This document shows positions 22-36,104 of a DNA stretch of 36,133 nt, piece after piece. The notes beneath the pieces were generated by a model, which worked only from the letters and a program-made list of their open reading frames with translations, did not search any database and had not been told where the DNA came from. How positions within the stretch are numbered: the stretch's first letter is position 1; every line of letters begins with the position of its first letter. Position numbers and translations under genes: made by a program. The stretch lies in UHGV virus genome UHGV-1536779, one strand, 5' to 3'. This DNA comes from a virus.

Positions 22-1389
22 TCAATATCCTAAAAAATTTATTTTCAAATTTCCATCTGGATAAACCACAATATTTTTAATCACTTGCCGCCATAAAGAA
101 CTTTTTTCCGAAATAGTTAGCTGTTTATATCCATCTCTAAATTCAGCAGTAGAGTAGTTATGCAGTGAGTTCAAATCAATTTTAGCAATTTTATTATCTC
201 TTTCAGGTATTAAAAGTGCTTCTAATTCTTCTCTGTCTTTTTTATATTCCTCTAATGTTATAACCTCATTTAGATAAGCTTTTTTTAGTCTATCTATTTT
301 CTTTTTTATTTTATCGTTAGTATTCTTAGTTTTTTTTACTTCGGGTTCTTGTTGCATTTTTACAGACAGCTCTTCTGCTTGTTTTTCAATATTTTCCAGA
401 AGGAAATTTTCTAGTGTAGTTTCATATATACCTTTTTTATTACTACATTTTTTTACGTTATTACGGTTTTTGGTGCATCTATATAAATGTCTTTCATTCG
501 GGTTTGTCGTACCGTCTTTGCGTACATATCGGCTAATAACCGCCGTGGCGGAATAATTACAACCACATTCACTACAAACTAACAATCCAGTAAACATATA
601 GTCGCGTTTTTTATTCATACGAATATTTTTTGAAAGTTGTAATTGTACCCTTTCGAATACGTCACGATCAATAATAGGTTCACAAAAATTTTTATTATCT
701 CGTAATTCACCAATGTATTTTCTATTAGTAAGCATTTGCCGAACGCTTTGATAATCTCTTGTCATGCTGAAATGATTTTCTAAATGTCTAACGGTGGCAC
801 GCATGCTACCAGTTTCTAAATAGTACTGGAAAATTTCTTTTACTATTTCAGCTTTTTCATTTGGAACAAGATGTTTGTCTTTGATTTCGTAGCCAAGGGG
901 AACTTTTCCACTAACGACTTCACCTTTTCGTATTTTGTTATCAAAAACAGCACGTATTCTTTCAGAAGTCATCTGTGCTTCAAGCTCAGCAAAACCCATT
1001 GATTGATTTACAAATGAACGGCCCATTGCTGTTTCTGTGTTAAAGAAAGGTTGTGTAACGGCTAACCAAGTAACATTGTTTTTGTCTAGTATTTCTTGAA
1101 TATTTAAATAATGACGTAAATTTCTAAACCATCTATCTAATTTTGTAAATAAGATCGTATCGATTCTTCCTTTTTTAACATCATCCAATAATTTTTGAAA
1201 TTCATCACGATATAGTTTCTGACCTGAAATGCCATCATCTATATAAGTTTTGAATACTCTCATATTTCCTTGTTGTCTTACGTATTCATTTAAAGTGTAT
1301 TGTTGTTCATCCAAACTATCACCATGTTTAGCTTGTTGATCTGTAGACACACGTATGTATAACGCTACTTGTTTTATTTCATTTGCCAT
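22..1389 (-). CDS. int: Large serine recombinase (phage integrase)
   Basis: 455 aa. N-terminal resolvase-type catalytic domain with the catalytic-Ser motif ALYIRVSTDQQ. Recombinase domain, then a C-terminal Cys cluster (CSECGC...CTKNRNNVKKC) and a coiled-coil, as in phiC31/A118-type large serine integrases. Confidence 0.9.
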   Translation of the reverse strand: MANEIKQVALYIRVSTDQQAKHGDSLDEQQYTLNEYVRQQGNMRVFKTYIDDGISGQKLYRDEFQKLLDDVKKGRIDTILFTKLDRWFRNLRHYLNIQEILDKNNVTWLAVTQPFFNTETAMGRSFVNQSMGFAELEAQMTSERIRAVFDNKIRKGEVVSGKVPLGYEIKDKHLVPNEKAEIVKEIFQYYLETGSMRATVRHLENHFSMTRDYQSVRQMLTNRKYIGELRDNKNFCEPIIDRDVFERVQLQLSKNIRMNKKRDYMFTGLLVCSECGCNYSATAVISRYVRKDGTTNPNERHLYRCTKNRNNVKKCSNKKGIYETTLENFLLENIEKQAEELSVKMQQEPEVKKTKNTNDKIKKKIDRLKKAYLNEVITLEEYKKDREELEALLIPERDNKIAKIDLNSLHNYSTAEFRDGYKQLTISEKSSLWRQVIKNIVVYPDGNLKINFLGY

Positions 1390-14429: not shown

Positions 14430-14502
14430 TGGAGCATAGCTTAATCGGTAGAGCAGCGGTCTCCAAAACCGTTGGTATAGGTTCGAATCCTATTGTTCCA
14501 GT
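14430..14502 (+). tRNA. tRNA-Trp (anticodon CCA), phage-encoded
   Basis: Hand-folded cloverleaf. Acceptor TGGAGCA / TGTTCCA with one G-U pair. D-arm GCTT-AATCGGTA-GAGC. Anticodon stem GCGGT / ACCGT. Anticodon loop CTCCAAA, giving anticodon CCA. T-arm ATAGG-TTCGAAT-CCTAT. Closely parallels the B. subtilis tRNA-Trp layout as recalled. Confidence 0.8.
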
Positions 14503-31826: not shown

Positions 31827-32055
31827 TTGGAAATCAAGAATAAAAAACAAACAATTCTGGTTGTCTCTTATTCCTGCAGTTTTGTTACTTATTCAAGTAG
31901 TTGCAGTTCCTTTTGGGTATAAATTTCAAATTGATGTGATTAATCAGCAACTGCTAGATGTTGTCAATGCAGTGTTTGTTGTATTAACTATTTTAGGAAT
32001 TGTGACAGACCATACAACGCCTGGTTTATCAGATAAAAAGGAGACAAATAAATGA
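31819..32055 (+). CDS. Holin, phiLC3 family
   Basis: Start at [28 protein letters not shown]... (GGAGG 8 nt upstream). Two TM segments and the [11 protein letters not shown] tail match the phiLC3-type holin pattern. ATGA overlap with the lysin. Confidence 0.65.
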
Positions 32056-33290
32056 AAAAGAAAATTTTAGCAGGAGCGTTAATCGCTCTATTTTTTATGC
32101 CTTTAAATGTATTTGCTGCAAAGGGTGATCAAGGCGTTGATTTGTCTATTTGGAATGGATATCAAGCAACATTTGGTTATTCACATGATAAATTCTCAAT
32201 TTCACAAATTGGTGGGCAAAATAACTATGGAATTTATGATCAAGTTACTTATTCTAGTCAAGTAGCTAGTACGATTGCTCAAGGTAAACGAGCACATACG
32301 TATGTATGGTGGCAAAATGTCCTTACCTACGAAAATGCAAAGCAAGTATTAGATTATTTTTTACCTAAAGTTCAAACACCAAAGGGATCAATTGTCGCCT
32401 TAGATGCGGAAGACGGCGTTCAATCGACGGATGTAACGCTATGGGCGTTAGACTATATCAAAGAGGCTGGATATACACCGATGCTTTACGGATACAAAGG
32501 GTATCTTACTTCAGCTTATGATCTATCACGAATTGCAAAGAAGTATCAATTATGGATGGCAGAATATCCAGATTATGAAGTGACACCTTATCCAAATTAC
32601 AATTATTTTCCTTCATTTGAAAATATCGGTATTTTTCAGTTCACGTCAACCTACGTTGCAGGAGGGCTAGATGGTAACGTTGATTTAACAGGTATTACTG
32701 ATAATGGTTATACAAAAAATAACCAACCAGAAACAAACACACCAGCTATTGAAGAAGGTAAAGAAGTTGAAAAAACACCTACTTCTGCAGTAAAAGTCGG
32801 TGACACGGTCAAAGTGAAATTTAATGTTGATGCTTGGGCAACTGGTGAAGCTATTCCAGATTGGGTAAAAGGAAACAGCTACAAAGTGCAAGAAGTAACT
32901 GGAAGCAGAGTATTGCTAGAAGGTATCTTGTCATGGATTAGCAAAGGCGATATTGAATTGTTGCCAGATGCTACAACTGTTCCCAATAAGCAACCAGAAG
33001 CAACACACGTGGTTCAATATGGCGAAACATTATCGAGCATTGCGTACCAATACGGAACAGATTATCAAACGTTGGCGGCATTAAATGGATTGGCTAATCC
33101 AAATCTTATTTATCCTGGTCAAGTTTTGAAAGTCAATGGATCAGCAGTAAGCAACGTTTATACAGTTCTATACGGTGATAATTTATCAAGTATTGCAGCC
33201 AAACTCGGCACTACTTATCAAGCCTTAGCTGCATTAAACGGATTAGCAAATCCTAACCTGATTTATCCTGGTCAAACATTGAATTATTAA
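32052..33290 (+). CDS. Endolysin: Sec signal peptide, GH25 muramidase and two LysM repeats
   Basis: N-terminal [25 protein letters not shown] signal peptide. GH25-like GVDLSIWNG. Two C-terminal LysM repeats ([39 protein letters not shown] and a second copy). Confidence 0.85.
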
Positions 33291-33415: not shown

Positions 33416-34000
33416 TTGAAAAAAACAATATTAGTTATGGGATTGGCATTAATTTTATTTACAGGGTGTGGCCAGAAAAAGGTTGAATCAGAGAAAAGTA
33501 GTTCGTCGTATTCTGTAACCTCGCAAAGCAAACAGCAAGAGCTTAGTTCATCAAAATCAAGTGATAAGTTATCTAGCAGTATGACTTCCAGTGATAAAAA
33601 TAGTAGTGTATCAACGAGTTCAATGGAAGATTCATCTGTGAGTGTTGATTCAGGAAAATCTTTAGATACTGATGCCATTACTAAAGGAGATTTTAGTTCA
33701 TTAGTGGGGACATGGGAAAATAGCGAAGGTAAACGATTGGACATTAAGAGTGATGGGACTGTTAATGAAAATATGAAAGTAGAAATTGATACAATAGGTC
33801 AATCCGATACTAGTATTCCAACCGTATCAGTACAACCCAAAAAACCTGCTGCTGGTGGTTTTCTTTTATTCCTATTTGAAAAAGATGTAGAAAACCCTAA
33901 AGGGGACAATTCAGATGTATCAAAAGATAGAATTGTTGGATCGCAAAATAGTATAGGACCTTTTCAGTCTGATGCATACTATTATCGAGTATCTATATAA
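33416..34000 (+). CDS. Ser-rich surface lipoprotein (moron)
   Basis: TTG start 7 nt after GGGGAAG. MKKTILVMGLALILFTG-C lipobox. Long S/K/D low-complexity linker. Followed by its own strong terminator. Confidence 0.65.
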   Translation: MKKTILVMGLALILFTGCGQKKVESEKSSSSYSVTSQSKQQELSSSKSSDKLSSSMTSSDKNSSVSTSSMEDSSVSVDSGKSLDTDAITKGDFSSLVGTWENSEGKRLDIKSDGTVNENMKVEIDTIGQSDTSIPTVSVQPKKPAAGGFLLFLFEKDVENPKGDNSDVSKDRIVGSQNSIGPFQSDAYYYRVSI

Positions 34001-34007
34001 ATTTAAG

Positions 34008-34032
34008 TTGCCTTAGTCAAGGCAATTTGTTT
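34008..34032 (+). terminator. Intrinsic terminator TTGCCTT-AGTC-AAGGCAA followed by TTTGTTT
   Basis: Perfect 7-bp stem, tetraloop and T-tract. Confidence 0.75.
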
Positions 34033-34042
34033 CAATAATGTG

Positions 34043-34051
34043 TGGTATAGT
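34043..34051 (+). promoter_or_regulatory. Extended -10 element TGgTATAGT upstream of the STAS-GHKL cassette
   Basis: The TGn-TATAGT motif is read directly. No good -35 element, as is usual for extended -10 promoters. Confidence 0.35.
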
Positions 34052-34104
34052 CCAGAACTTTAAGTATATAATAGAGATAATTAAAGTAAAGTTGAGGTAA
34101 AAAA

Positions 34105-35010
34105 TTGGAGAGAGTAATCGAGATACCTGGTCAGTTTACCCAAAATACAATTGATTCAGTATTGGAAAATGTAATTAGACCAGATTTAACCCCTGTAAGT
34201 AAAAAAATTAAATTTGACCTTAGAAATATTAGTTTTATTGATCCGTGTGGTATGACTGCACTATATAATATTTGTTTATGGCTGCAAAAAACAGAAGAGG
34301 TAGATGCTTCATTCATACTTAATCCCAAAGAATCGGTACCTAAATATAATGAAAAACCCATGATGTATTTAGTAGACTGTGGTTTTTTTACAGAGTTTTT
34401 TGGGAATAATGAAATTTATAAAGTGCCTCATCGTAGGAATACAACGCTACCAGTTAGAACATTAAAATCAGAAGAGAGTTACAGTTGGAAGGAAAGTACA
34501 TTAAAACCGTGGATACAGAGATGTACAGGCAGATATTGTGAATATAGTAATATACAAACTGCTATAGATGAAATATTTAATAATATTTCAGATCATTCAA
34601 GTCAAAAAATTGGATGTGTATTTGCACAGTTCTTTCCAAAATGGAATAAAATAATCATATCAATATCTGATTTTGGAATTGGTATTCCCACCTCGTTAAG
34701 ATCATTATTTCCAGATAAAAGCGATGCTGAACTATTAGAAATCTCTTGTAAAGAAGGTGTTTCTACGCGGTCTAGTCCTAGAAACAGAGGGGCTGGATTG
34801 ACTAATATTATAAGAAGTTTAACAAATTCAAGTATAGGTACTGTTCATATTCAATCTAATTATGGTATTATAGAAATAGAAGATAAGAAAATAGCTAAGT
34901 TAGAAACTAGCACTAGTTTTTACCCAGGTACGTTGTTTTGCATAGAGCTATTTTTAGATAACGAAAGTCTTTATGATTTTGATGAAGAGGAGGAGTTTAC
35001 ATGGTTTTAA
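34105..35010 (+). CDS. Fusion protein: N-terminal STAS-like (anti-sigma-antagonist-like) domain plus C-terminal GHKL ATPase / RsbW-SpoIIAB-like serine-kinase domain
   Basis: TTG start 6 nt after GAGGT. N-terminal KFDLRNISFIDPCGMTALYNICLWL resembles the STAS core. The C-terminus carries Bergerat-fold motifs: N-box (IDEIFNNISDHS), G1 (ISISDFGIGIP) and G2 (NRGAGLTNI). Confidence 0.55.
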   Translation: MERVIEIPGQFTQNTIDSVLENVIRPDLTPVSKKIKFDLRNISFIDPCGMTALYNICLWLQKTEEVDASFILNPKESVPKYNEKPMMYLVDCGFFTEFFGNNEIYKVPHRRNTTLPVRTLKSEESYSWKESTLKPWIQRCTGRYCEYSNIQTAIDEIFNNISDHSSQKIGCVFAQFFPKWNKIIISISDFGIGIPTSLRSLFPDKSDAELLEISCKEGVSTRSSPRNRGAGLTNIIRSLTNSSIGTVHIQSNYGIIEIEDKKIAKLETSTSFYPGTLFCIELFLDNESLYDFDEEEEFTWF

Positions 35011-35327
35011 TTAAAATTGATGACATTTTAAATAGCCATTATACCAATGATGACGGTGAAAAGTTATACGAGATAATTATTTCCCATTTTTCTAAGAATC
35101 AAAGTGTTGAACTTTCTTTTGAAAATATAGATTCTGTAAATACATCATTTGTTAATTCGGCTTTTATAAAGTTACTAGACTTGTATAGTTTTGAAATGAT
35201 TAGAACCAATTTAACATTTGTAAATACAAATAGACAAATAAATAACTTGATAAGAAATAGATTTAAATTTGAAGTTGCAAAAAAGATGACCAATAGTATG
35301 CATACGCAAATGAAAGTATTTGCGTAA
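35001..35327 (+). CDS. Small STAS-like protein (DUF4325-like), partner of the GHKL fusion
   Basis: 108 aa. GGAGGAG RBS. Overlaps the upstream stop codon. SVELSFENIDSVNTSFVNSAFIKLLDL resembles the STAS / DUF4325 core (family assignment from memory). Confidence 0.5.
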   Translation: MVLIKIDDILNSHYTNDDGEKLYEIIISHFSKNQSVELSFENIDSVNTSFVNSAFIKLLDLYSFEMIRTNLTFVNTNRQINNLIRNRFKFEVAKKMTNSMHTQMKVFA

Positions 35328-35331
35328 AAAG

Positions 35332-35368
35332 AGGCTCGGTTCACTACTGGATCGGGCTTCTTTTTATT
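35332..35368 (+). terminator. Hairpin AGGCTCGGT-N10-ATCGGGCTT followed by TTTTTATTT
   Basis: 9-bp stem including 3 G-U pairs, then a T-tract, after the cassette stop codon. Confidence 0.4.
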
Positions 35369-35371
35369 TCA

Positions 35372-35445
35372 GGACCATTAGCTCAGTTGGTTAGAGCAAA
35401 CGGCTCATAACCGTTCGGTCACAGGTTCGAGTCCTGTATGGTCCA
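35372..35445 (+). tRNA. tRNA with CAU anticodon: elongator tRNA-Met, or more likely a tRNA-Ile2 (lysidine) type
   Basis: Hand-folded 74-nt cloverleaf: GGACCAT-TA-GCTC-AGTTGGTTA-GAGC-A-AACGG-CTCATAA-CCGTT-CGGTC-ACAGG-TTCGAGT-CCTGT-ATGGTCC-A. No three consecutive G-C pairs in the anticodon stem, so not an initiator. C4/C5 in the acceptor stem and the CTCATAA loop resemble the Bacillus tRNA-Ile2 as recalled. Confidence 0.8.
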
Positions 35446-35492: not shown

Positions 35493-35555
35493 TTATGTTA
35501 ATATTTTTTTGTTGAAAAATAGAACAAACGTTCGTATAATATTTCTGATAGGAGA

Positions 35556-36050
35556 GTGTATCAGATGGTGAGACGAACTAAAAAAGAGTTTAAACCTTAC
35601 AACGATTATGTTGACAGGCCATTCGAATTAAAGTGGCCCACAGCTTTTCCATTGGGTGAATTAACAGAAGCAATTAAAAACACAGACGAATACCACGCTC
35701 GAAACATCAAGCGATTACCCCAACAATCCCAACAGCAAATAGAATATTTTTTAGATCGCTCTATTAAGCAAAATAAGGTACTAGAAATTCAGCTGAACTC
35801 ATTAGATGAATATGATCGTGTAAAACCACATGTTTTTGGTGTTTTCCGTGGGATGGCAGAATTTGACGTCGTGTTGATTGGAGAAAATGAAGTAGATTTT
35901 TACGATATAAGACATATCCAGATTCATAATTTCACGAAATGGAGTGAAGAATATGTGATAGAAGAAAATCCATTCGAGGAAGAACAAGAACACTGCGAAA
36001 CGATAGATGAATTTGTGGACGAATATTTCAATGATGAGTGGATAGAATAA
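35556..36050 (+). CDS. Hypothetical protein, weakly YolD-like
   Basis: 164 aa. GAGAG RBS. Segments FELKWPTAF and VFGVFRGMAEFDVVLIGE ... IRHIQI faintly resemble YolD-like proteins. No umuC partner is present. Confidence 0.3.
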   Translation: MYQMVRRTKKEFKPYNDYVDRPFELKWPTAFPLGELTEAIKNTDEYHARNIKRLPQQSQQQIEYFLDRSIKQNKVLEIQLNSLDEYDRVKPHVFGVFRGMAEFDVVLIGENEVDFYDIRHIQIHNFTKWSEEYVIEENPFEEEQEHCETIDEFVDEYFNDEWIE

Positions 36051-36063
36051 TTAAAAACGCAAA

Positions 36064-36104
36064 AGCTCTGCTTCTCAGTTACGGGAAGTAGAGCTTTTTT
36101 GTTT
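36064..36104 (+). terminator. Strong intrinsic terminator (AGCTCTGCTTC-N10-GAAGTAGAGCT followed by TTTTTTGTTT)
   Basis: 11-bp stem with one G-U pair, followed by T6. Confidence 0.8.

Follow-up and report, generated by a model that had tools for sequence, protein, structure and literature searches.

A VapK/VapS-like STAS-GHKL kinase gene and STAS-partner gene carried without an effector gene in the cargo region of an Enterococcus prophage

An Enterococcus prophage (UHGV virus genome UHGV-1536779) is the host of a two-gene cassette, located just 3′ of the lysis genes, whose products are homologous to the kinase VapK and its STAS partner VapS. The first gene (K; positions 34105-35010, + strand) encodes a 301-aa protein made of a STAS domain and a GHKL domain of the Ser/Thr-kinase type. 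The second (S; 35001-35327, + strand) encodes a 108-aa DUF4325/STAS-like, VapS-like protein, and the two genes overlap by 10 nt. Positions refer to the window, the whole 36,133-nt stretch of DNA that was analysed. With moderate confidence, we read K/S as a kinase-substrate phospho-switch of the VapK/VapS (CapK/CapS) type that travels as prophage cargo and forms part of a distinct two-gene branch without an effector gene.

The cassette lies in AT-rich cargo between the endolysin gene and a phage-borne tRNA-Met gene, with a hairpin terminator on either side. The upstream hairpin (34004-34029, + strand) has an 11-bp stem, a 4-nt loop and UUUGUUU behind it. It was identified by folding (-11.4 kcal/mol, z -3.2) as well as by a terminator scan, and is a weak intrinsic terminator. 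It closes the gene of an independent cargo neighbour, a 194-aa lipoprotein (33416-34000, + strand; DUF6287, lipobox LFTGC), and insulates the cassette. The terminator scan calls the same hairpin on the - strand too. The downstream hairpin (35324-35367, + strand; 20-bp stem with an A-tract on one side and a U-tract on the other) is a strong, bidirectional intrinsic terminator (-25.4 kcal/mol, z -8.6 by folding), and it ends the cassette 4 nt ahead of the tRNA-Met gene (35372-35445, + strand), which forms the right border of the cargo slot. A candidate extended -10 element, TGgTATAGT (34043-34051, + strand), was read off the sequence and received no call in a consensus promoter scan; a second TATAAT is present at 34067-34072, and a good -35 is absent. 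The pair may be expressed as an insulated unit. Thus, the two-gene cassette that the preliminary description had proposed is real, as are its 10-nt overlap and both terminator hairpins. Its location had to be amended in part. The post-lysin site is indeed a variable cargo slot (phiFL4A is empty there, and EFC-1 has a TIR protein), but the cassette is near the prophage end and not at it, because the downstream tRNA-Met is phage DNA, common to phages phiFL4A, EFC-1, AE4_2 and IME197 at 97-99% identity.

K begins directly with strand beta-1 (residues 3-6) of a STAS sensor domain (residues 1-110), which is followed by the GHKL domain (residues 111-285) and by a disordered acidic tail (residues 286-301) containing DFDEEEEFTWF, whose C-terminal motif, EE-Phi-x-W, is conserved and clade-specific. 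The description of K as a fusion of STAS and GHKL whose ATP site is intact proved accurate: the N-box Asn (N159/N160, codons 34579-34584), G1 (DFGIGIP) and G2 (GAGL) are near-invariant in 97 clade representatives, with N160, D189, G191 and G193 kept in 97/97, G229 in 95/97 and G231 in 96/97. N160 aligns with N160 of VapK. By structure comparison, the closest solved folds are SpoIIAB, RsbW and UsfX, and the partner-switch ancestry suggested earlier is borne out because SpoIIAB and RsbW are among them. A domain search gave no HTH match in K, PADLOC returned only a GHKL-level match to the DrmA model and no known defence system, and NCBIfam assigned no family to K or S. The Pfam search proposed in the preliminary description found DUF4325 in S and no HisKA in K, which scored under the HATPase_c threshold. 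The chance that K is a fragment of a sensor histidine kinase lying beside an unrelated small ORF is practically nil. A weak phmmer match to histidine-kinase CA domains (E 0.03) and the label “sensor histidine kinase” given to homologues by some sources point that way, but K has no match to HisKA/DHp, a STAS fold instead precedes the CA domain, and K homologues are full length and always coupled to S. An ordinary histidine kinase fragment, against which the preliminary description had weighed its own reading, is thus ruled out.

The small protein is the STAS-like partner it had been taken for: DUF4325, the sole domain found in S, is matched with a Pfam E of 6e-14. Of 112 homologues, 95 have Ser and 17 have Thr at position 48 of S, so that Ser/Thr is present in 112/112. 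In the prophage protein this residue, T48 (codon 35142-35144), caps the N-terminus of helix alpha-2 and is the predicted phospho-acceptor. Invariance of the catalytic and acceptor residues suggests that the two-gene branch is functional. Residues 93-108 of S make up a 16-residue tail that is not conserved even among enterococcal relatives, and most family members end 4-8 residues past the VapS-aligned region. Foldseek comparison of the S model with a PDB copy older than the 9Z7O release gave weak STAS matches, none of them significant, and PADLOC returned nothing for S. K and S match phrog_3364 (E 3e-55) and phrog_9989 (E 8e-27), respectively, over their full lengths; PHROGs thus already lists the pair among phage genes, although both families bear the label “unknown function”.

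The earlier statement that no characterised system has this exact architecture is outdated, since Chambers et al. (EMBO J 2026; PMC13373217) have characterised VapK (STAS-GHKL) together with VapS (STAS). They belong to VapKSC, a VapK-VapS-VapC anti-phage toxin-antitoxin operon of Escherichia sp. E4736 (PDB 9Z7O) that senses DNA damage and protects against a phage, while CapK-CapS are regulators of immune operons (PDB 9Z71-9Z73) (PMC13373217). In VapK/CapK, ssDNA activates the kinase, which then modifies its STAS partner on a conserved Ser/Thr, and phosphorylation frees VapS from the VapC toxin and CapS from DNA (PMC13373217). In both published cases the kinase is only the sensor, while the output is held by the STAS protein and encoded next door (PMC13373217). 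Comparison of K with VapK gave an hhalign probability of 99.2% (E 2e-19, 239 columns) and a BLASTP E of 1e-13 across the GHKL domain, with 23-28% identity; S matched chain A of the VapS crystal structure 9Z7O with a profile E of 1.6e-12 and a phmmer E of 1.3e-4. Literature searches brought up no description of a two-gene phage version; their only traces were an unannotated pair in Francisella phage KIRK and a remark from 2017 that DUF4325 genes are coupled to one VapC subgroup.

The two-gene form is widespread and spans several phyla, with 96 dereplicated clades at 75% identity in the sample analysed and, at 50% identity, ~339 clusters; its hosts are found among Firmicutes (enterococci and streptococci), many Proteobacteria and Saccharibacteria. 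No PIN protein was found by Pfam scans of 45 + 10 + 10 same-strand downstream ORFs. The only trace came from locus L146, where a 99-aa, coiled-coil-like ORF gave a sub-threshold PIN_10 match (E 0.008), which was dismissed. It could be argued from the lack of a PIN gene here, and from the tRNA gene that follows directly, that the cassette is a decayed, functionless vapKSC remnant that has lost vapC. This is highly improbable: the two-gene form is the rule in the 96 clades and their ~339 clusters, 0 of the ~55 downstream ORFs tested is a PIN, neither the catalytic nor the acceptor residues vary, and the tail carries a clade-specific motif.

When 1,478 neighbour ORFs within 4 kb were clustered, no family occurred in >10/96 clades, and thus no conserved third gene emerged. 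The top neighbour families were integrases, holins, lysins, and YolD-like and LexA-DBD proteins. In agreement with the preliminary description, neither a sigma factor nor a PP2C phosphatase was present in the cargo region of the window or among recurrent neighbours, within the top 25 families listed; likewise, a trans partner (PIN or sigma factor) in the whole window was not among the 25 families listed. The survey of homologue neighbourhoods that it had called for led to prophage ends and the ends of R-M operons, with no recurring sigma factor plus PP2C among the families listed. These findings bear on whether K/S could be a classical partner-switch that controls or hijacks a sigma factor of the sigma-B or sigma-F type. 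In its favour, the GHKL fold of K is nearest to anti-sigma kinases and S is like anti-sigma antagonists in size and acceptor position, but K is specifically related to VapK and, unlike anti-sigma kinases, has a STAS sensor domain in addition. Moreover, to our knowledge, enterococci and streptococci, which carry the pair, have no sigma-B and no RsbVW. We therefore consider this explanation very unlikely, and hijacking of sigma-B, which the preliminary description had raised, is unlikely given that the carriers are enterococci, streptococci and many Proteobacteria.

The absence of a third gene in 96 clades also means that the module is self-contained, which is compatible with K being the effector itself. 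As a toxin-antitoxin or abortive-infection device of this kind, active or S-free K would phosphorylate or sequester essential host or phage proteins, with S as pseudo-substrate, antitoxin or phosphate buffer. The closest solved relatives of K (SpoIIAB, RsbW, UsfX) bind and silence a third protein, the conserved clade-specific C-terminal motif of K resembles a docking motif, and degenerate loci mostly combine a frameshifted K with an intact S (L061, L080, L081, L086). However, this asymmetry is expected from K being 3x as long as S, the cases are too few, and the kinase of the two characterised relatives is a sensor only, with the output on the STAS protein. We regard an effector role for K as possible but unlikely.

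K/S is strongly phage-borne: it follows prophage lysins, as seen in 73 IMG/VR contigs and in phages LYGO9 and KIRK, and is also carried by JX01 and vB_E188. Together with its position adjoining the lysis cassette, the ssDNA-generating RecT/exonuclease module that the prophage itself encodes, and the YolD-like and LexA-DBD genes that recur nearby in Bacillus prophages, this would fit a device serving the phage, either as a counter-defence decoy against host alarms of the CapKS/VapKSC type or as a DNA-damage input to prophage induction or to the timing of lysis. However, chromosomal type I R-M operons of mitis-group streptococci also have the pair at their 3′ end, and islands with Fic and HigB-like modules carry it too; these are settings of host defence. 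Furthermore, terminators insulate the pair from the late operon, and it has no link to repressor or antirepressor genes. A phage-serving device is, in our judgement, improbable.

The role of K/S is most likely that of a DNA-damage or infection alarm given to the host by a prophage or R-M island. The defence role suggested in the preliminary description is plausible, given that VapKSC, which is homologous to K/S, confers protection against a phage and in view of the prophage-end and R-M contexts. The more specific form of this role, abortive infection, is without direct support, since K/S comes without the toxin responsible for the lethality of VapKSC. For the favoured VapK/VapS-type switch, homology predicts an ssDNA trigger and phosphorylation of S at T48. 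The STAS and GHKL domains of K would form a groove that senses ssDNA, with F44 (codon 34234-34236) stacking on the DNA, and the ssDNA would come from DNA damage or from phage replication and recombination. The STAS domain of K would itself be no phospho-acceptor, as its helix cap reads FIDPCG with Pro at the cap position. Activated K would phosphorylate S on T48; unphosphorylated S would hold a partner and phospho-S would let it go, as in VapS/VapC and CapS/DNA. Since no clade has a conserved third gene, the partner would have to be K or else a conserved protein of the host or phage whose gene lies elsewhere. Both the nature of the output and the role of the K tail are matters of speculation; EE-Phi-x-W-COOH could be an autoinhibitor that mimics ssDNA in the groove or a docking motif for the partner.

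Several observations weigh against the VapK/VapS-type reading. In the published systems the logic depends on an output, either VapC or a wHTH domain, which this cassette does not encode; nor does S have a conserved counterpart of the VapS C-terminal helix. Identity to VapK is low, K falls short of the HATPase_c threshold, and the F44 column, aromatic in 84/97 clade representatives, is non-aromatic in 13/97. In the source paper, the ssDNA groove of the VapK/CapK kinases was itself derived from AlphaFold 3 modelling (PMC13373217).

Taken further, K/S might be a self-contained, phage-spread ssDNA alarm with no dedicated toxin, in which either phospho-switching of S or the K tail acts directly on a universally conserved host machine. 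We offer this idea tentatively and give it a low probability. Candidate machines would be the SSB-interaction network/replisome, RNA polymerase, or a co-resident R-M enzyme (restriction alleviation or activation), and the acidic tail of K recalls the C-terminal tips of SSB, T7 gp2.5 and T4 gp32. If true, the pair would represent a new class of prophage switch, effector-less and serving immunity or the control of lysogeny, and this would explain how the same pair works from Firmicutes to Proteobacteria and Saccharibacteria. CapKS and VapKSC established that ssDNA can be converted into an immune signal by a GHKL kinase together with a STAS protein (PMC13373217); the window reveals a sizeable sister branch that is always without an output gene and occupies the moron slot and the ends of type I R-M operons. 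If this branch is functional, a testable question is what a phospho-STAS switch controls when it travels alone. The answer may point to a conserved target in the host at which phage-borne signals are directed, to a coupling of restriction with the sensing of DNA damage, or to a new defence that prophages confer on enterococci and streptococci of clinical relevance. Two PHROG families, phrog_3364 and phrog_9989, gain an annotation.

Among known systems, SpoIIAB-SpoIIAA and RsbW-RsbV differ from K/S in that the kinase lacks the fused STAS sensor domain of K and in that SpoIIAB and RsbW are anti-sigma factors encoded with a sigma factor and a PP2C phosphatase, neither of which was found near K/S among the families listed. 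Similar to CapK-CapS, in which CapK phosphorylates CapS upon ssDNA, K/S pairs a GHKL kinase bearing a STAS domain with a STAS partner, and both systems are often directly downstream of R-M systems, as at the mitis-group streptococcal loci of K/S. In contrast to CapK, K has no extra N-terminal HTH domain, and in contrast to CapS, whose wHTH domain represses the adjacent downstream immune operon, S has no DNA-binding domain and is followed by a terminator and a tRNA gene rather than an operon; a search of the PDB with the S profile gave no CapS match. Unlike VapKSC, K/S is mostly prophage cargo and has no PIN/VapC gene after S, either here or in the 96 related clades. S is without a conserved equivalent of the C-terminal helix of VapS (residues 94-116), which reaches and blocks the VapC active site, and K ends in the conserved acidic motif where VapK ends ...YYRLTSELG. 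Like VapK, K is a STAS domain fused N-terminally to GHKL with neither HTH nor DHp/His domain, and it keeps the catalytic Asn of VapK/CapK (equivalent to CapK N218) and the G1/G2 motifs. Its F44 aligns with VapK F54, the counterpart of CapK W68 in the proposed ssDNA groove. As in VapS, the S gene is immediately downstream of the kinase gene, and T48 of S aligns with the VapS acceptor, S48.

The window is a temperate siphophage of Enterococcus faecalis type. The gene order starts with a large serine recombinase (22-1389, minus strand) and passes RecT, a PD-(D/E)XK exonuclease and DnaD/DnaC-like replication genes before it reaches the genes for terminase, portal, capsid and tail; XkdX and a holin lie between these and a GH25-LysM endolysin (32052-33290), and a tRNA-Trp gene is found inside the prophage (14430-14501, plus strand). 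Beyond the lysin, the STAS-GHKL protein K (301 aa, TTG start, 34105-35010) and its STAS-like partner S (108 aa, 35001-35327) are encoded on the plus strand by ORFs that overlap by 10 nt, each preceded by a good Shine-Dalgarno sequence. Folding upheld both of the intrinsic terminators that the preliminary description had placed around the pair: the hairpin at 34004-34029 has an energy of −11.4 kcal/mol (z −3.2), and that at 35324-35367, flanked by an A-tract and a U-tract, −25.4 kcal/mol (z −8.6). The proposed extended -10 promoter stood only in part; TGgTATAGT is readable at 34043-34051, yet it lacks a -35 and went uncalled in a promoter scan. K plus S has a GC content of 29.6%, lower than that of the structural genes (36.7%) and of the window as a whole (35.5%).

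The cassette is prophage cargo. In phage phiFL4A only ~58 bp separate the lysin from the same tRNA-Met segment that follows S here (gene at 35372-35445, plus strand), and in phage EFC-1 the order is lysin, tRNA-Met, TIR-domain protein, integrase; thus, in this group of phages the stretch between lysin and att serves as a slot for variable cargo. The TIR-annotated gene of EFC-1 (locus L161, KJ608188.1 37404-38246) suggests that these phages use the slot as a hotspot for defence genes. Because the tRNA-Met segment is common to four virion genomes (phiFL4A, EFC-1, AE4_2 and IME197) with 97–99% identity, it is phage-borne and not the host attachment target, and the cassette, with phage DNA beyond it, lies near the prophage end but not at it. 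A 99%-identical IMG/VR prophage call terminates exactly at the S stop codon. Between the lysin and K, another independent cargo gene encodes a 194-aa DUF6287 lipoprotein (33416-34000, plus strand, phrog_10008) with a signal peptide, lipobox LFTGC and a Ser-rich linker, a candidate surface or superinfection-exclusion protein. After tRNA-Met, an acidic 164-aa ORF (35556-36050, plus strand) lies between a promoter close to consensus (TTGAAA-17-TATAAT, 11/12) and a terminator of its own (36061-36098), the whole unit spanning 35512-36098; a family search matched none, and its sole match is an ‘UNVERIFIED’ partial IME_EF3 record (84% identity).

HMM searches placed S in DUF4325, the “STAS-like” family (E 6e-14), while K scored weakly in Pfam (HATPase_c E 1.4e-4, below threshold; STAS E 0.065); in PHROGs, K is phrog_3364 and S is phrog_9989, both listed as function unknown. 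The ATP-binding motifs of K, originally described as intact, and its catalytic motifs are essentially invariant across 97 dereplicated homologues: N160, H164, D189, G191 and G193 are each present in all 97, E156 and G231 in 96, and G229 in 95. The reading of K as a histidine-kinase fragment is refuted, and we give it virtually no credence. The STAS domain of K reads FIDPCG at the site of the phospho-serine in SpoIIAA-type proteins and is therefore a sensor domain, not a substrate. Among 112 distinct S homologues, position 48 is Ser in 95 and Thr in 17, and the residues that follow are similarly constrained (S49 in 105, F50 in 112, N52 in 111). In the S model, which is confident (pLDDT 88, pTM 0.77) but for which Foldseek found weak STAS-like matches only, T48 caps the N-terminus of helix alpha-2, where the acceptor canonically sits. 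As a separate observation, K residues 150-286 (34552-34962) match positions 140-274 of the 1750-position PADLOC DrmA (DISARM) model with an E of 1e-8, better than the Pfam HATPase_c score, implying that some DrmA proteins may carry a related N-terminal GHKL module.

Loci carrying K relatives were fetched from genomes (78) and from IMG/VR (73), with extra contigs for an identical protein and a B. subtilis-group homologue. K-S pairing is obligate: in 139 of 158 loci the start of S overlaps K by 4–12 nt, and the others are contig ends or frameshifted K genes. Within 4 kb of K, integrases, holins and lysins were the commonest families across 96 K clades (dereplication at 75% identity). Phage lysins make up about one third of the 83 distinct upstream neighbours (Peptidase_M15_4, 8; Amidase_2, 6; GH25, 4; Glucosaminidase, 3; VanY, 3; Amidase_3, 2; CHAP, 2; Amidase_5, 1), and K lies ≤3.5 kb from a contig end in 61 of 73 viral contigs. 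S. agalactiae phage LYGO9 and prophages of the B. subtilis group repeat the order lysin, K, S, attP/integrase, and Francisella phage KIRK has a 293-aa protein paired with a 112-aa DUF4325 protein adjoining the integrase. In Bacillus-type prophages (L004-L008, L081, L130, L133, L144), YolD-like proteins (6 clades) lie a few kb from K/S, along with small proteins consisting only of a LexA DNA-binding domain (5 clades) and a small WYL-like ORF (6 clades), all linked to DNA-damage biology.

Defence islands are the second context. K/S sits ~20 nt 3′ of hsdS in eight mitis-group streptococcal loci (loci grouped with this arrangement: L009-L016, L061, L070); in S. mitis SK578 (L011 1077-8106), a complete operon of hsdR, hsdM and hsdS leads into K and S, beyond which lie Xre-Fic, a pyrimidine-dimer glycosylase and a Gp49/HigB-like gene. 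In single loci, restriction genes of type ISP and XcyI lie upstream of K. Damage-dependent control of restriction is a possible role for K/S behind hsdS. A phage-serving role, in counter-defence or the timing of induction, would match the phage location, but is at odds both with this restriction-modification context and with the insulation of the cassette from the late operon, and we regard it as improbable. Still less likely is a classical sigma-factor partner-switch or the sigma-B hijack raised at the outset: no sigma-factor or PP2C gene recurs near K/S among the top 25 families listed, and enterococci and streptococci are not known to have sigma-B.

The preliminary description knew of no characterised system with this architecture, but VapK/VapS (Chambers et al., EMBO J 2026, PMC13373217) has it exactly. 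The one solved structure matched by S is 9Z7O, deposited as “Escherichia VapS” (E 1.3e-4 with the single sequence; 1.6e-12 over the whole STAS domain with a 71-sequence profile). Against a VapK sequence reconstructed from the AlphaFold 3 file of that paper, the K family aligned with an hhalign probability of 99.2% (E 2e-19, K25-280/VapK35-284). K N160 aligns to VapK N160, S T48 to VapS S48, and K F44, a position occupied by an aromatic residue in 84 of 97 clade representatives, to VapK F54, the proposed ssDNA-stacking residue. Since K aligns to VapK and S to VapS, the architecture is of an experimentally characterised kind, and the cassette is less novel than initially thought; the original observation is confirmed and its interpretation supported in part.

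VapK is a STAS-GHKL relative of CapK, an ssDNA-activated HTH-STAS-GHKL protein that phosphorylates CapS (STAS-wHTH) on a conserved serine, releasing CapS from DNA and de-repressing immune operons; the proposed substrate of VapK is VapS, a STAS domain with a C-terminal helix, whose phosphorylation would free the PIN toxin VapC (PMC13373217). VapKSC gives E. coli resistance to phage Bas42, lost with VapK F54A, VapS S48A or VapC D28A (PMC13373217). By homology, K would be a sensor kinase and S its substrate, a kinase-substrate switch that we hold to be slightly favoured overall. The nucleic acid that would bind between the STAS and GHKL domains of K, at F44, is most probably ssDNA arising from damage or during phage replication and recombination; K would then phosphorylate S at T48, and phosphorylated S would change partner. 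Within this scheme, phosphorylation of S by K is quite probable, ssDNA as the trigger is an even call, and a host-protective role is plausible though somewhat doubtful. A toxin-antitoxin or abortive-infection pair with the kinase as toxin would suit the self-contained design and the anti-sigma ancestry of K/S, but is contrary to the behaviour of both characterised relatives, making it unlikely.

In contrast to VapKSC, with its vapC effector gene, the K/S clade has no linked effector gene. In 77 loci the gene after S lies on the other strand, and same-strand genes there are of many kinds (Xre-type HTH, YolD-like, integrase, terminase, CheW, glyoxalase and others), with no PIN protein among ~55 same-strand downstream ORFs. 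Clustering of all ORFs within 4 kb showed no conserved third gene: even the most frequent family reached at most 10 of the 96 K clades. S-family proteins stop a few residues past the VapS-aligned part, with no conserved counterpart of the VapC-blocking C-terminal helix. The two-gene form is too widespread and too well conserved for K/S to be a decayed vapKSC remnant, a reading that seems very remote; at 50% identity and E ≤ 1e-30, the clade has 339 representatives in a set of 1.84 billion proteins. As the kinase-substrate module travels alone between very different hosts, it should act either on K itself or on a host or phage protein that is broadly conserved. Two individual loci differ: in Paenibacillus ferrarius (L050 8377-8703) a second, 109-aa DUF4325 paralogue lies 199 nt downstream of S, and in a Candidatus Ozemobacteraceae MAG (L054 7897-10080) the K homologue is directly followed by a 727-aa fusion of S-type DUF4325, HATPase_c_3 (MORC-like GHKL), coiled coil and a NucS_C-type endonuclease domain. 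Judged by its domains, this fusion looks like a K-controlled nuclease effector in one protein and indicates that S-type STAS domains can gate nuclease effectors.

K residues 286-301 (34960-35007) form an acidic, predicted disordered C-terminus ending in EE-Φ-x-W, a tail found in 83 of 96 K clades (W300 in 92 of 97 representatives); Escherichia VapK ends in YYRLTSELG and lacks it. This tail resembles the acidic-aromatic tips of the ssDNA-binding proteins SSB, gp2.5 and gp32 and, by that analogy, is a candidate ssDNA-mimicking autoinhibitor or docking motif. The output of the effector-less pair is a testable question. The published survey retained only vapC-containing loci, and effector-less pairs are not discussed there (PMC13373217). 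The position of K/S behind streptococcal hsdS parallels that of capKS, 88 of 443 pairs of which lie just downstream of restriction-modification systems (PMC13373217). Measured against these systems, K/S is a variant not described before: it lacks an effector, is borne mainly by phages and has a signature tail of its own.
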